DNA of 39,382 bases from an archaeon. Its GTDB lineage: Archaea; EX4484-52; B79-G9. The notes beneath the pieces are model-generated. The model was not told the DNA's origin. It did no database searches and saw only the letters and a program-made list of their open reading frames with translations. Within the stretch, counting starts at the first letter, position 1, and each line of letters begins with the position of its first letter. A program made the position numbers and the translations under genes. Shown piece after piece: positions 4,494-39,382 of the stretch. The stretch is taken from positions 1 to 39,382 of the forward strand of contig JBDRKP010000005.1 in assembly GCA_043813875.1 (NCBI GenBank). Reading direction: 5' to 3'.

Positions 4494-4586
4494 TAAAAAA
4501 TCATGAAATTTAGATGCAATTGGAGAATTTCAAGCTTTTTTATTGTCAAGATGTGCTTTATACACAATAAAAAATCATGAAATTTA
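4494..4586 (+). repeat. Hairpin-chain element copy F (TCATG-hairpin-CAAGC-hairpin-TCATG)
   Basis: 19-bp direct repeat TAAAAAATCATGAAATTTA at 4494 and 4568; perfect 11-bp stem TTTTTTATTGT (4536-4546)/ACAATAAAAAA (4564-4574); 4496-4540 aligns without gaps to the reverse complement of 19216-19260. Confidence 0.8.
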
Positions 4587-5816: not shown

Positions 5817-5906
5817 AAGAACCGATACTGTGCATCAGAGATGCTTCAATCCTTTTGGGGTGCACTCCAGTCCAGGTTTATAATATCTGTTTGCCATGAG
5901 ATAATC

Positions 5907-6524
5907 ATGGAGCCTGATCTAGTGGCCAAGTGCGACAGGTGCGGTGATTGCTGCCGGACGCAGAAGATACCATTCAATCTTGCCGACATATTTGGCATCA
6001 GTGCTCACTTAAAGATGGCCCCGGATGATTTTGTTGAGCGGTATCTTGAGCTCATCGCCGATAAGGAAGGAGAGCTGGCCTATGTCATAAAAGAGAAGCT
6101 GTGCCCTTTCCTTATCGATAATCTCTGCTCGGTTGAGGAAATAAAGCCCACTGTGTGCAGGACGACGCCATGCCCTAAAAATGAGGGCTACAGGGAATTT
6201 TCCAGGAAATATGGCGCCATGACTCTACAGTTCCTGCAGAACAGCGCTTCTGTGATGATAACACACGGACTTAATGTCGAGTATACGCAGGATTATCTTG
6301 AAAGACATAAAAAGTTTGATGAACATTCTGCTATGGAATACAGGCAGAAAATCGAGGCTGACCTGAAAAATAAACTGCTTTCGTGGATGCTGCTTAAAAA
6401 TATGGTCGCTGTCGGGGTGCATCCCAAATACCATGCAATCATTCTTGATAAATTAAAACGCAAGGGCATTATAGTAAACGCCATAACTTTTTCATGGAAA
6501 TTCTTCGAATTTCCAAGCTTTTGA
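5907..6524 (+). CDS. YkgJ/FliB-family cysteine-cluster (CxxCxxCC) protein
   Basis: CDRCGDCC...CPFL...C...KPTVCRTTP. Start placed at ATG 5907, downstream of a TTTATAA box. Confidence 0.82.
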   Translation: MEPDLVAKCDRCGDCCRTQKIPFNLADIFGISAHLKMAPDDFVERYLELIADKEGELAYVIKEKLCPFLIDNLCSVEEIKPTVCRTTPCPKNEGYREFSRKYGAMTLQFLQNSASVMITHGLNVEYTQDYLERHKKFDEHSAMEYRQKIEADLKNKLLSWMLLKNMVAVGVHPKYHAIILDKLKRKGIIVNAITFSWKFFEFPSF

Positions 6525-6776
6525 ACCGAACCATATTTTTAATGGTTCAAAATCGTGCCAAGCTTTTGAGACAAGCTCAAAATAGACAAATGGCGTTTCC
6601 ATATCCTTAAAAATCGATGATTTTTAGGATTTTGAAAATTTGTATCAAATTTCCAATTTTCGAAATTCGAAATGGGTGAACATTTCGAAAATCCTATGAA
6701 TCGAAGATTCATAAGGATAGTTGACACCTCTTGGTTTTTGGCATAGTTTGTCCATTTATTAACGATGTCAACTATA
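6470..6776 (+). repeat. Modular hairpin element copy A (307 bp, largest copy)
   Basis: TATAGT, stem AAACGCCAT/ATGGCGTTT enclosing TCRTG/CAAGC modules, CCAT, two ATCCT..AGGAT hairpins, then ATAGTTGACA/TGTCAACTAT, ending in ACTATA. Confidence 0.85.
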
Positions 6777-8193: not shown

Positions 8194-8365
8194 GTAGAGC
8201 AGCTAGAGTATGGACTGTGATGAAACGCCTGAAAATGCCTGAATCTTACTGGAATTTCAGCCAAAAACAAGCTCAGATTTATCGATTCTGTCCAGCCGTG
8301 ATTTAACTTTCTGATAGACCTCTAAATATAATTCATCTGCATCTTCTGCATTCATATCATCTGTT

Positions 8366-8800
8366 TCATAGTAAAAAAATCGGTGCAGGTTGTTGCTTAA
8401 AGGAGTCGAATTCGGCCCCTTTAAAATCAGGGTTGTTTAAATTCTCCCGCAATACCAGAAACTCAATTGTATTACGGCTTCCCATCCAGTTTTTTATTGC
8501 ATCTTTAGAAGGAATTGACTGGATTATTCTGAAAAGAGATTTAGTATTAGCGCAATCGGTCATATAATCTTTACTGTCAGAGGACCGTAGTTTCAGTTGT
8601 ATCCAAATTGGGGACAACTCAAGTTGCTTGAATTCCCTGTCTTTTATCTTGCCCCAATATTGGCGGGGTTTCGGACTCTCAGTCAAAACCTCAATAATAT
8701 CAATAACAGAAAAATACCATTCATCATTATGCCAAAGTCTCCTTATATTCTTGCCCTGGAATACAACCAATGCGCTATCTGAATCCATTTTTACACTCAT
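8366..8800 (-). pseudogene. Chimeric remnant: Bro-N domain joined to an internal KilA-N fragment
   Basis: IRRLWHNDEWYFSVIDII...RIIQSIPSK is Bro-N-like and stops abruptly; IKNWMGSRNTIEFL..ENLNNPDFKGAEFDSFK is mid-KilA-N-like. Confidence 0.7.
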
Positions 8801-8967
8801 CAGATAAAATATTGCATGTAATTATATATAGCTTATCAGTATAGCATGCCGATAGAATGCTTTTGCGCATCGGCCTTTATGTCTTTACCCTGCCTTCATA
8901 TTCAATCTGCACCATTGATATCCAAACATCAATAAACTATAAAAAGTCTCGAACATATAGTTGTCCT

Positions 8968-16785: not shown

Positions 16786-16886
16786 TATAGTCAAAGACAG
16801 AACTTTTTGCACTGTCTTTGCCATATAGATTAACGCCTTTTTGTCTATTGGATAAGCAGGTTATGGTGGTAAAGGCGTTAACTATA
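16786..16886 (+). repeat. Modular hairpin element copy C (101 bp, minimal two-hairpin form)
   Basis: TATAGT-CAAAGACAG/CTGTCTTTG-CCAT-ATAG..TAACGCCTTT/AAAGGCGTTA-ACTATA. Confidence 0.82.
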
Positions 16887-19192: not shown

Positions 19193-19274
19193 TTTTTCTA
19201 TGCTGCTGCAAATAGAAAAAGCTTGAAATCCGAATATTGCGCAGAAATTTCATGATTTTTCGGATTTTTACTAT
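19193..19274 (-). repeat. Hairpin-chain element copy E between convergent genes
   Basis: Minus strand reads ATAGT-AAAAATCCG-AAAAA-TCATG-AAATTT..ATTT-CAAGC-TTTTTCTAT/ATAGAAAAA-TCA. Confidence 0.78.
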
Positions 19275-26612: not shown

Positions 26613-26778
26613 TATACTCAAGGCATGAAATAAATGAGCAAAATTCAACAAAATACCAAATTGCTTTGAGTATCCTAACGAATCTCCGATTCGCTGGATC
26701 CTAAAATTGCCTTGCAATTTTAAGGATATGGAAAGGCACGCTACTCAAAATATTCGTAATATTCGTGCCTTTACTATA
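26613..26778 (-). repeat. Modular hairpin element copy B (166 bp)
   Basis: Minus strand reads TATAGT-AAAGGCACG/CGTGCCTTT-CCAT-ATCCTTAAAATTGC..GCAATTTTAGG-ATCC..GAATC/GATTC..AGG-ATACTCAA..TTGAGTATA. Shares TTTCCATATCCTTAAAA and the TTGGT..TTTTG..CATTTATT loop with copy A. Confidence 0.85.
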
Positions 26779-29782: not shown

Positions 29783-29883
29783 TATAGTCAATCGACTAAC
29801 TTTTCGTGGTCATAATCTGACCATCATACATGATTGACTATATGGGGATCCACAATCATTAAAATGCTGGTGGATTCACTATA
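29783..29883 (-). repeat. Modular hairpin element copy D (101 bp) upstream of metK
   Basis: Minus strand reads TATAGT-GAATCCAC/GTGGATCC-CCAT-ATAGTCAATC/GATTGACTATA with an inner TGGTCA/TGACCA hairpin. Confidence 0.82.
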
Positions 29884-32322: not shown

Positions 32323-33159
32323 ATGAAGAAAATAAAAATGCTGCTCGTATTTCTCATCATAGCATCATACATATCATTCTCAATAAGCACTTCCTTTGCA
32401 GAAGAAGATTATCATCATGATAATGACAATCCGTATCAAGAAGAGTTCGAACAAAATTTAGTAAAGGAAGGAAAATTCTTAAGACACAAAGATACCGGCA
32501 TACTCGCACATAATCCGGACGAATTAGATGGCACCGTAACATCGCCAACAGAACTAACAATAGATAAAATTGCATTCAAATACAAAAATTACAACAACTT
32601 TATAATGATACCCGATGACAACGAACCGTCCATAATACTCATCTTCAACAAAGGAAGCGTAAAATCGACATTATACATCGATAAGAAAGCAAAGGAAATA
32701 CTCGATGAAAGCGGGAGCAGCATAGAAATAATAACAGAAGGCTCAACTTCAAGCTCCTTAATAGTAGACAAATCTGACATCCAGCCGACTGATACATCAG
32801 GAATATTCGCTATTGAAATCAAAGACAAAGACAGCAAAAAAGACCTGACAGGCGCAATCAAGAATGAACTCAAAACCGGCAGCAAAACAATATATCCCAA
32901 GATAACAAGCCCTGATTCAACGATAACAGGATCCAAAGTGACAATCAAAGACCCTACCCTGACGAGCATAAAAAATTTCAAGGACCTGATTTTATGGATT
33001 AACCTTCAGTTCAACACTAATTTAGATAATGATGAGAAAAAGATATTAAAAGACGGCATTCTTCTGACTCTGGAAAAGACAGTCGAAGATGCCACATCGC
33101 CCCCGCTCGACGAAACTCTGCCAGAAGAACCTATTGTATACTCATGCCCGATTGAATGA
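32323..33159 (+). CDS. Exported hypothetical protein, paralog 1
   Basis: Signal peptide MKKIKMLLVFLII; shares GTVTSP, KGS.KSTLY, SKTIYPKIT, DNDEKKILK.GILLTLEKTVED with the next ORF. Confidence 0.85.
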   Translation: MKKIKMLLVFLIIASYISFSISTSFAEEDYHHDNDNPYQEEFEQNLVKEGKFLRHKDTGILAHNPDELDGTVTSPTELTIDKIAFKYKNYNNFIMIPDDNEPSIILIFNKGSVKSTLYIDKKAKEILDESGSSIEIITEGSTSSSLIVDKSDIQPTDTSGIFAIEIKDKDSKKDLTGAIKNELKTGSKTIYPKITSPDSTITGSKVTIKDPTLTSIKNFKDLILWINLQFNTNLDNDEKKILKDGILLTLEKTVEDATSPPLDETLPEEPIVYSCPIE

Positions 33160-33167
33160 ATACAGAA

Positions 33168-33193
33168 ATTTAATTTAATGCCGTAAATTAAAT
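33168..33193. terminator. AT-rich 10-bp inverted repeat with 6-nt spacer after the paralog 1 stop
   Basis: ATTTAATTTA-ATGCCG-TAAATTAAAT. Confidence 0.35.
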
Positions 33194-33237
33194 GACAACT
33201 ATACTCCGATTATCAAAAAACAGACAGAGGACTTCTA

Positions 33238-34104
33238 ATGAGAAAAAATACAAAAATCCTGATTCTAATATCACTCATTCCTATAATCATACTATCAATC
33301 ATAATCAATACCCAGCTATCAACTCGTAATGACAGCAATGAAGACAAAGAATATCTGGCATTTAAAAATAGCCTGATTCGAGATGGAATATACATAAGGC
33401 ACAATGAAACAGGCATAATCGCAATCGACCCATCAGAATTGGGCGGCACAGTAACATCACCATCAAAACCGAATGAACCGACAGAAATATCGATAGACGG
33501 AATCGCATTCAGATACAACGATGAGAACCCGTTTGAACCATTTGTTTTTGATCCAGAAGACGGGGAACCCTCGATGGTCATCATATTCAAAAAAGGAAGC
33601 ATAAAGTCAACACTCTACCTGGACGAAGATGCAAAAAAAGCGCTCGACGAAGGAGGTACTATTGAAATCATTGTAGAAGGATCACAGACAAGCCCATTAA
33701 TAGTTAATAAGTCAGATATCCAAAAAAGCAAAGAACCAGGCTTATATCTGATTGAACTCAAAGACAGCGACCACAAAAATGACCTGAAAGAAACTTTTGA
33801 AGAACTCAAACCCAAAAGCAAGACAATATACCCCAAAATAACAACATCGAAATCAAGTGCGAAAGGAACCACAATCACAGTCAAAGAATCGGAAGAAGTA
33901 AACCCCCTAAACAGCTTTAATGAATTTATCTTATGGACCAATATGAAAATGAATGTGGATTTCGATAATGACGAGAAAAAAATATTAAAAGAAGGCATCC
34001 TTTTGACACTAGAAAAAACAGTTGAAGACAGGACAGCATCACCAGAAGACAAAAGCACAGAACCAGAAGATACATATCCTGACGATGTGTGCGTGATACG
34101 CTGA
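33238..34104 (+). CDS. Exported/membrane-anchored hypothetical protein, paralog 2
   Basis: N-terminal hydrophobic anchor; colinear similarity to 32323-33159. Confidence 0.85.
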   Translation: MRKNTKILILISLIPIIILSIIINTQLSTRNDSNEDKEYLAFKNSLIRDGIYIRHNETGIIAIDPSELGGTVTSPSKPNEPTEISIDGIAFRYNDENPFEPFVFDPEDGEPSMVIIFKKGSIKSTLYLDEDAKKALDEGGTIEIIVEGSQTSPLIVNKSDIQKSKEPGLYLIELKDSDHKNDLKETFEELKPKSKTIYPKITTSKSSAKGTTITVKESEEVNPLNSFNEFILWTNMKMNVDFDNDEKKILKEGILLTLEKTVEDRTASPEDKSTEPEDTYPDDVCVIR

Positions 34105-39161: not shown

Positions 39162-39382
39162 ATTTTCCACCTCCTGCAATATCCAACATCGATAGACACT
39201 GTATGGAACGTGGCAGGCCTGGGCGTTCATCTGGATAACGCCACTAGCCTGCCGGAATCTTAGGGCTCGGATATAATGACTATTACCTCCTTTATTTTTT
39301 TACCTGCTCATTCCAAACCGGCATCCTTCATTTCACCTCCTGTGCATATCAAGTCCATAATAAGATTCAGTTTTTCGCATGG

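Follow-up and report, generated by a model that had tools for sequence, protein, structure and literature searches.

Four short repeats in a contig of a DPANN archaeon belong to a single family of gene-less, TA-bounded elements of ~103 bp, each made of two hairpins, and further two-hairpin modules are nested inside some of them. These gene-less modules are gained or lost as exact units, and we lean towards the view that they move as folded single-stranded circles, which an enzyme would cut and rejoin. The family is real, is reproducible across the genus and is stranger than an ordinary MITE, and there is a fair chance that it reflects a new recombination chemistry. What is new here is the nesting of the modules, together with the lack of target duplication at those insertion sites where it can be judged.

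A family of two-hairpin elements

The window is a stretch of 39,382 nt, contig C5 of the host genome assembly (G000; 1.64 Mb in 90 contigs, 91.5% complete). It holds four elements: A (6470..6776, plus strand, 307 bp), B (26613..26778, minus strand), C (29783..29883, minus strand) and D (16786..16886, plus strand), with B and C belonging to a divergent subfamily. An earlier sequence-only reading of the window had taken A and B as filled and C and D as empty states of one element, and we agree that they are filled and empty states of one family. In the empty form (101-107 bp), hairpin L is followed flush by hairpin R, with TA at each end. The ends of the outer element are imperfect inverted repeats of ~30 bp that co-vary by subfamily, and in B-type copies position 5 from the right end tracks the foot of hairpin R and not the left end. 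Profile searches of the host genome recovered at least 74 outer-element loci, with more divergent copies beyond these, and their position is mostly intergenic. With D as the query, matches were found in all seven other genomes of the genus, in two of eight others in the family and in two of 25 in other families. Viral contigs scanned with three patterns gave no matches.

To describe the family we parsed copies from the whole host genome and from stretches of 11 relatives, which gave 156 rows, 139 of them with TA at both ends. Whole outer elements also nest in one another at TA. Five rows were removed as false pairings or duplicates, leaving 151 copies; L141 and L147 of G001 are a single locus seen twice and were counted once. 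We had considered 27 metagenome stretches as independent support and rejected them, as 26 came from one assembly whose contigs are identical to stretches of G003.

Element A illustrates how far an element can be filled, with inserts in its loop as well as at its centre. It occupies the final codons of a CxxCxxCC gene (5841-6524) and so supplies this gene with a new C-terminal tail and stop, and the orthologous site is empty, with one TA, in three of the five same-genus loci that align across it. In relatives, the CxxCxxCC gene stops at or beside the insertion site of A. Read along the plus strand, A begins with the left end and the 5' arm of hairpin L (6470..6491, 22 nt), which runs to loop insertion site 1. 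An X-type hairpin pair follows (6492..6552, with hairpins at 6492-6518 and 6519-6552), itself inside the loop of another X pair, the remainder of which lies at 6553..6582 (3' arm of the first hairpin at 6553-6563, second hairpin at 6564-6582). The 3' arm and foot of L (6583..6603) lead up to the central insertion bond after position 6603. Beyond this bond come hairpin a, the first half of the central pair, with an extra base on its 5' arm (6604..6629); module Z, 62 nt long (6630..6691, with hairpins at 6630-6665 and 6666-6691), at the a/b boundary; and hairpin b, of the c class, the second half of the central pair, with an extra base on its 3' arm (6692..6717). Hairpin R and the terminal TA complete the element (6718..6776), and we read the TA at 6775-6776 as target-derived. 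Hairpin b is an inverted relative of hairpin a. Compared with a copy on contig C13, the 5' arm of the host X pair in A is short by 10 nt, between two short direct repeats.

Some outer elements hold other sequence. A 745-bp copy (L322, C70:6918-7662 of the host genome) carries a 123-codon ORF without a Pfam match in its L loop, and in G004 the site of the entire unit is cleanly empty, with 2 nt left. This ORF is bounded by sequence that we take to resemble attC halves. Hairpins inside elements at C13:19794-19321 (L323) and C12:159 of the host genome are presumably like the end hairpins of IS200/IS605. The same hairpin sequence also ends several contigs.

Hairpin pairs at the central junction

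The hairpins that the sequence-only reading had quoted from A all occur where we have placed a, Z and b, and the two it had quoted from B lie back to back in a single central pair (a, 26726-26699; c, 26698-26673, within 26778-26613 on the minus strand). In C and D, as it had also noted, CCAT is followed directly by ATAG. The further hairpins that it saw between the cassettes of A are present, but together they make up one separate module, Z. Machine parsing classed the 151 copies as 85 empty, 58 filled and 8 unparsed, numbers in which the filled/empty ratios of the relatives are biased because these stretches were picked through matches to empty elements or to end patterns. By eye, the eight unparsed copies comprise two empty ones, four regular ones and two with imprecise slippage deletions. 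When the junction is tabulated over the copies, inserts always begin at one fixed bond of CCATAT and not at random positions; they start right after the foot of L and stop right before the foot of R.

A fixed site for the cassettes, as first proposed, is upheld, but the unit is a flush pair of hairpins and not a single ATCC..GGAT hairpin. All 58 machine-parsed filled copies fit the grammar "first hairpin, zero or more pairs, second hairpin", and no lone a or c hairpin occurs among them. The commonest filled form is a-c (31 copies), and the form of A, a-Z1-Z2-c, was found in six; the longest parsed form, a-c-a-P1-V1-V2-P2-Z1-W1-W2-Z2-c, was found in one. The a/c boundary is the site of Z and P, whose own inner boundaries hold W and V, and the order of tandem pairs is fixed. 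The unrelated pair X occupies the same central bond in five copies, and a-type pairs also occupy the centre of a nested mini-element. The same insertion rule holds again where the two hairpins of each pair meet and at set positions in the loops, and one copy in G004 reaches ~520 bp with four levels of nesting.

The letters at these boundaries are less constant than the arrangement. In G019, which belongs to another family, new pairs with other boundary letters are arranged in the same way, and the AT that consecutive cassettes were thought to share is not a general feature. Because the boundaries of G019 differ, it is the flush geometry that stays constant, and not AT or ATCC..GGAT as such. 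The ATCC..GGAT foot likewise turned out to vary among 63 a hairpins (TCC/GGA in 36, TCA/TGA in 13, TGC/GCA in seven, TGA/TCA in two, mixed in five), and in 58 of the 63 the feet vary in matched pairs. Loops of 3 nt, described at first as universal, are common but account for 149 of the 210 loops of 3-6 nt that were predicted within central inserts. We also considered C-GNA-G loops as a sign of DNA folding and discarded them, since they make up just 35 of the 149 triloops, on either strand. A search for free-standing hairpins, as the sequence-only reading had suggested, recovered the a-type hairpin in 117 distinct contexts across 3.2 Mb of DNA, none of them free-standing. With DNA parameters, the folding energy of A is -54.9 kcal/mol, or z = -7.4 relative to 60 dinucleotide shuffles, and given this value and the 117 contexts of the a-type hairpin, its fold is not a product of chance.

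Insertion into the chromosome

Outer elements insert before TA and sometimes before CA, and the 5' flank of the insertions has no fixed motif. In the IS630/Tc1 family, a staggered-cut DDE reaction places the target dinucleotide at both ends of the element. Alignable empty sites were available for 17 filled copies, A among them; two bases are left in all 17, and these equal the right-end dinucleotide in 15. The other two (TG and TC) agree with neither end; later mutation is the best reading of them, or else hairpin-templated repair that rewrites the bases. Most of the 17 empty sites are TA and say little, because duplication and an element-borne TA look alike there, and it is the non-TA targets that separate the two. 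The two ends differ in four copies, TA..CA in three and TG..TA in one, and each time it is the right end alone that the empty site matches. The target duplication of IS630-type elements is thus absent from every informative copy. From the sequences of these sites, the TA looks element-borne and not duplicated as in IS630 MITEs, with the caveat that later hairpin repair could mask a duplication. Changes in the left dinucleotide also tend to go along with changes in the central one (of four TG rows, three pair TG with CA), as expected if both are borne by the element. In this register, with an element-borne TA, the outer element shares its plan with the cassettes, two flush hairpins inserted with no duplication. 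Mismatches between the first and central dinucleotides are rare, which works against our preferred reading in that hairpin-templated correction could erase a true duplication.

The main alternative, which we regard as rather unlikely, is that the outer element is an IS630-type MITE with TA duplication. Its inner pairs would have arisen through rare fold-back or template switching at the feet and spread by gene conversion and transposition, and hairpin repair would keep the stems paired and turn a left CA into TA. Much of the anatomy described above is consistent with this, including the prevalence of TA at both ends, the long terminal inverted repeats that co-vary by subfamily and the nesting of whole elements at TA. 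The mixed feet of five a hairpins show recombination between copies, the position of Z, always between a and c, offers possible homology arms, and a fixed order of tandem pairs is what inherited blocks would show. IS630 elements with TATAG ends also occur in G005, G006 and G018. Nevertheless, the empty sites of the four unlike-end copies argue against a duplicated TA, and the ends of the IS630 elements found within the genus (three of eight genomes) do not match the inner positions of the element ends. Were this explanation true, the family would still show with unusual clarity how a MITE can serve as a landing pad, and would be a cause of contig breaks in DPANN assemblies.

Gain or loss of modules

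Five same-host orthologous copies in sister species, with flanks 91-98% identical, differ by nine module-sized indels at canonical sites, each of them precise or at most one base off. Filled and empty states occur at one and the same locus in sister species, and no same-host orthologous pair with identical module content was found. One pair is reciprocal, with a-Z-c in G006 and X plus a mini-element in G004. At a sixth orthologous site, the two species carry different elements. That all five pairs differ in their modules would be fast for the rare accidents supposed by the IS630 explanation. The a/c pairs, moreover, cross between hosts that share only ~5-10 nt at the junction, which that explanation does not readily accommodate. 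Z is nearly as similar between divergent subfamilies (identity 0.90) as within them (0.905; 13 carriers), and its hosts are 0.66 alike between subfamilies and 0.79 within.

X occupies at least six non-homologous classes of site and also occurs free, a distribution that again speaks against the IS630 explanation. Its distance to the left end is 22 nt in 20 of 28 L-loop inserts; among the 12 R-loop inserts, five have it inverted at 22 nt from the right end. Free or tandem X gave 51 structural matches in the host genome and none in a shuffled genome, and 43 profile matches. Two such sites are in the window, one at 4501..4574 (plus strand), where a second copy begins at 4575, and one at 19193..19255 (minus strand). 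Pairs of the a/c, Z, P and W types were never found free-standing. The free X pairs constitute a second repeat family, the tandem copy number of which differs between species (L312 in G007, L313 in G006), and 24 of 29 lie on the G-rich strand. A BHB (tRNA-intron) geometry for X was rejected, as its 3-nt unpaired stretches face each other.

These differences could also be losses, if the long forms are ancestral and shorter or empty forms arose when replication slipped across hairpins, from one 2-nt foot repeat to the other. Hairpins do favour slippage, the fixed tandem order is consistent with subsets of one array, and no outgroup that carries elements was found to set the direction of change at the five loci. 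Slippage is visible in the family, but it leaves imprecise products (a 9-nt footprint as the remnant of Z on C70, a 7-nt loss at L045 in G003, the 10-nt loss in A), whereas the empty states are exact. Single hairpins flanked by the same 2-nt repeats are never lost alone. The reciprocal pair would demand that the ancestor held every module and that losses in each of the two lineages were exact, and a single master could not place X at many different sites. We therefore consider slippage as the source of the empty forms improbable, and prefer exact gain or loss of the two-hairpin modules.

Read mapping had been suggested as a way to detect length polymorphism at a single locus. It was carried out with low-depth contigs and gave no usable polymorphism, and no read-based polymorphism was seen at B or C. 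A joint from 6628 to 6691 that skips Z, seen in two runs (X2 and X4), was rejected as proof of polymorphism, as the letters of its right half are those of a copy on C76, which points to another copy or to an assembly chimera.

Search for an enzyme

No cognate enzyme was found in the host genome or across 42 genomes of the order, from incomplete assemblies; this absence is weak evidence, because multi-copy elements are often missing from assemblies of this kind. The host genome holds a single fragment of Y1 TnpA, at the end of a contig, three tyrosine recombinase matches and one IS630, with CTAG-type ends unlike those of the element. IS110, serine resolvase, reverse transcriptase and DUF559 had no match in it. 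The one GIY-YIG match, in a 536-codon frame, has no link to the element. Y1 and IS630 each match eight of the 42 genomes of the order and three of eight in the genus. At the ten loci with Y1 HUH genes scanned in these incomplete genomes, no element ends lay within ~1.5 kb, and one weak X match was obtained (E 0.22). No RAYT flanked by repeats was found in the genus.

None of the 42 genomes has an integron integrase above the TIGR02249 cut-off. IntI-like matches skip most of profile positions ~190-232 of TIGR02249 and are spread through the order regardless of the presence of the element; an element lies ~150 bp upstream of one IntI-like gene in G005, at one of 12 loci scanned. Of the 42 genomes, 30 have such IntI-like tyrosine recombinases that lack the integron-specific region, often several in each (L186, L178-L189, L003). 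The extra bases in the stems had been likened to the strand marks of HUH and attC substrates, and because neither an HUH nor an integron enzyme could be linked with the family, this likeness stays an analogy.

The ends of the IS630 in G018 fall in the top ~2% of a TATAG-starting background when compared with the element end profile, a weak likeness in a genome without an element match, and those in G005 start with TATAG but mismatch further in. The likeness in G018, together with the inverted repeats of ~30 bp, points to a DDE transposase and counts against the movement of folded circles that we prefer.

Folding and strand bias

Closed-circle folds with stacked junction pairs were predicted for 31 of 32 simple pairs and for 69 of 73 empty outer elements. 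For Z, only three of 13 predicted circles were stacked, which goes against our preferred reading. The circle fold is a modelled structure and largely restates the flush-hairpin geometry. The top and bottom strands are predicted to fold about equally well (-14.6 vs -15.2 kcal/mol over 73 empty copies).

In the host genome, L-to-R lies on the G-rich strand in 52 of 66 copies (p 3e-6), and orientation is unrelated to the direction of genes (33/74). The same bias is present in G002 (6/7) and G004 (11/13) and absent from G001 (6/12), G003 (8/15) and G005 (13/27). The skew is of the replication type: in 40 of 41 contigs, its sign at fourfold sites does not depend on gene direction. We rejected the idea that filled copies are more strand-biased than empty ones, as the difference is not significant (58/20 vs 44/29, p 0.08). 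By the usual reading, as given in the available text of PMC3971601, the G-rich strand is the lagging-strand template. The same text lists IS630 among the families with a bias in few chromosomes and in mixed direction, so that strand bias alone is not decisive. A structured non-coding RNA or RNA-level regulator under selection, with variable helices at a multibranch junction, would fit the paired changes in the stems and the mostly intergenic position, but it is highly improbable given that orientation ignores the neighbouring genes and tracks strand skew in three genomes, that close species differ in presence and absence with clean empty sites, and that no Rfam family matches within the window.

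A possible mechanism

If the modules do move as folded single-stranded circles, an excised unit would close into a circle that folds as a dumbbell, with its junction exactly opposite the inner boundary. One strand would then be exchanged with the target, with no target duplication. The outer unit would integrate at TA/CA, and inner units at the inner boundary of a resident. This boundary would resemble the circle junction and so offer a preferred target, which would lead to nesting. The extra bases of a and b/c would flank the cut on the junction strand, and may mark that strand for cutting. Filled forms would spread further by movement of whole elements and be shuffled by recombination between copies. 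No circle junctions were found among the assembled low-depth contigs, which counts against this scheme.

A bolder version, which we put forward tentatively and hold to be possible but short of probable, is structure-guided recombination, in which one enzyme of the host or the element would read flush hairpin junctions in single-stranded DNA largely regardless of sequence, cut hairpin pairs out as dumbbell circles and place them in further junctions of this type. If such a system exists, parasites of parasites would build bracketed arrays of up to 520 bp and could carry cargo such as the 123-codon ORF, and bacterial TA-bounded "MITEs" might move likewise. A recombinase that reads DNA shape over sequence would, if real, be new biochemistry and a possible tool. 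The natural exact empty and filled states of modules of 40-120 nt at defined bonds also define oligonucleotide substrates with which an enzyme could be hunted.

Comparison with known repeats

The outer element resembles RUP (IS630-Spn1), Correia/NEMIS and ERIC (MITEEc1, IS630) in being ~100-130 bp long, AT-rich, intergenic and of high copy, with TA ends and terminal inverted repeats. ERIC elements have insertions inside them, which may be the nearest precedent for nesting. The archaeal element is unlike these three in that each of its halves folds by itself, its left TA is element-like at all four informative sites, and it harbours a recursive nesting of many different two-hairpin modules at exact bonds. 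For Correia, the accessible parts of PMC2229807 and PMC11602168 describe forms of 107 bp and 155 bp, which differ by a 50-bp internal piece. Mobilisation of TA-bounded miniature elements by a transposase is presented in the available text of a 2008 review as a hypothesis without experimental support (PMC2229807). The non-TA targets of the archaeal family bear on this point, and favour an element-borne TA.

The middle of the element recalls BOX of Streptococcus (boxA-boxBn-boxC), which in the excerpted text of PMC3049150 has fixed ends and a variable number of self-folding inner modules. According to the same excerpts, the length of BOX differs between orthologous loci, and BOX, RUP and SPRITE insert into each other (PMC3049150). 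However, boxB is a tandem array of one module, whereas the archaeal modules are unlike pairs in a bracketed hierarchy that use several sites, with X also free. The strand preference of BOX (61%), as far as it is described there, mirrors coding bias, and that of the archaeal element does not follow genes. The arms are reminiscent of the CIR repeats of Caulobacter and Brucella, which the available text of PMC2229807 gives as ~110 bp long, with TA termini, halves that fold independently and a mobility that is unexplained. CIRs carry GANTC sites and a linker, unlike the archaeal element, and that text mentions no nested cassettes for them.

In REPINs/BIMEs, the hairpin doublet is mobile, and doublets rather than singlets are excised exactly, as stated in the accessible part of PMC3116915. 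For RAYT/TnpA-REP, the part of PMC3333891 available to us reports that a stem mismatch is required, proposes a single-stranded circle and notes that copy number varies at a locus. The doublet is also the unit in the archaeal element, as it is in 58 of 58 parsed filled copies. Unlike REPINs, the archaeal element has no unpaired GTAG-type guide at the foot, its feet being paired and varying in matched pairs; there is no spacer between its hairpins, its stems are AT-rich, no RAYT flanked by repeats accompanies it in the genus, and the target of the doublet is the doublet's own inner boundary.

Integron attC cassettes are recombined as folded single-stranded substrates with extra stem bases and carry the core pair RYYYAAC ... 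GTTRRRY. On inspection, the archaeal copies lack this core pair, and no IntI accompanies them. The ends of IS200/IS605 elements are, in the available text of PMC6006769 and PMC3971601, folded single-stranded substrates with extra stem bases, no target duplication and a link to the lagging-strand template. The apparent lack of duplication in the archaeal element would agree with IS200/IS605. Unlike IS200/IS605, the archaeal element has no fixed target or guide of 4-5 nt, and no cognate TnpA was found. Likenesses thus exist in the ends (RUP/Correia/ERIC), the middle (BOX), the arms (CIR) and the doublets (REPIN), going by the accessible portions of the literature (PMC2229807, PMC3049150, PMC3184786, PMC3116915, PMC3333891, PMC3733652, PMC6006769, PMC11602168). 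In each case the archaeal element fails on a defining feature: duplication for an IS630 MITE, guide and RAYT for a REPIN, core sites and IntI for an integron. A literature search on archaeal and DPANN repeats, with most subscription papers outside its coverage, returned no description of nested hairpin pairs.

Other features of the window and host genome

The last bases of the window (39240-39382) are a terminal repeat that is also present at the end of C62 and the start of C26 of the host genome; on C62, it directly follows an IS630 with a split, probably frameshifted, transposase. At 8272-8805 of the window, four runs show a high-depth stack of contigs from other organisms, over an ORF on the opposite strand (8366-8800), and this pile-up is probably due to a conserved gene or a repeat. 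Two tandem paralogous ORFs of 278 and 288 aa, without a Pfam match, lie at 32323-34104. Elsewhere in the host genome, at C44:6163-10129, two elements and three X pairs are found among small genes, an arrangement like a cassette region, and by eye these genes resemble toxin-antitoxin or nucleotidyltransferase types.
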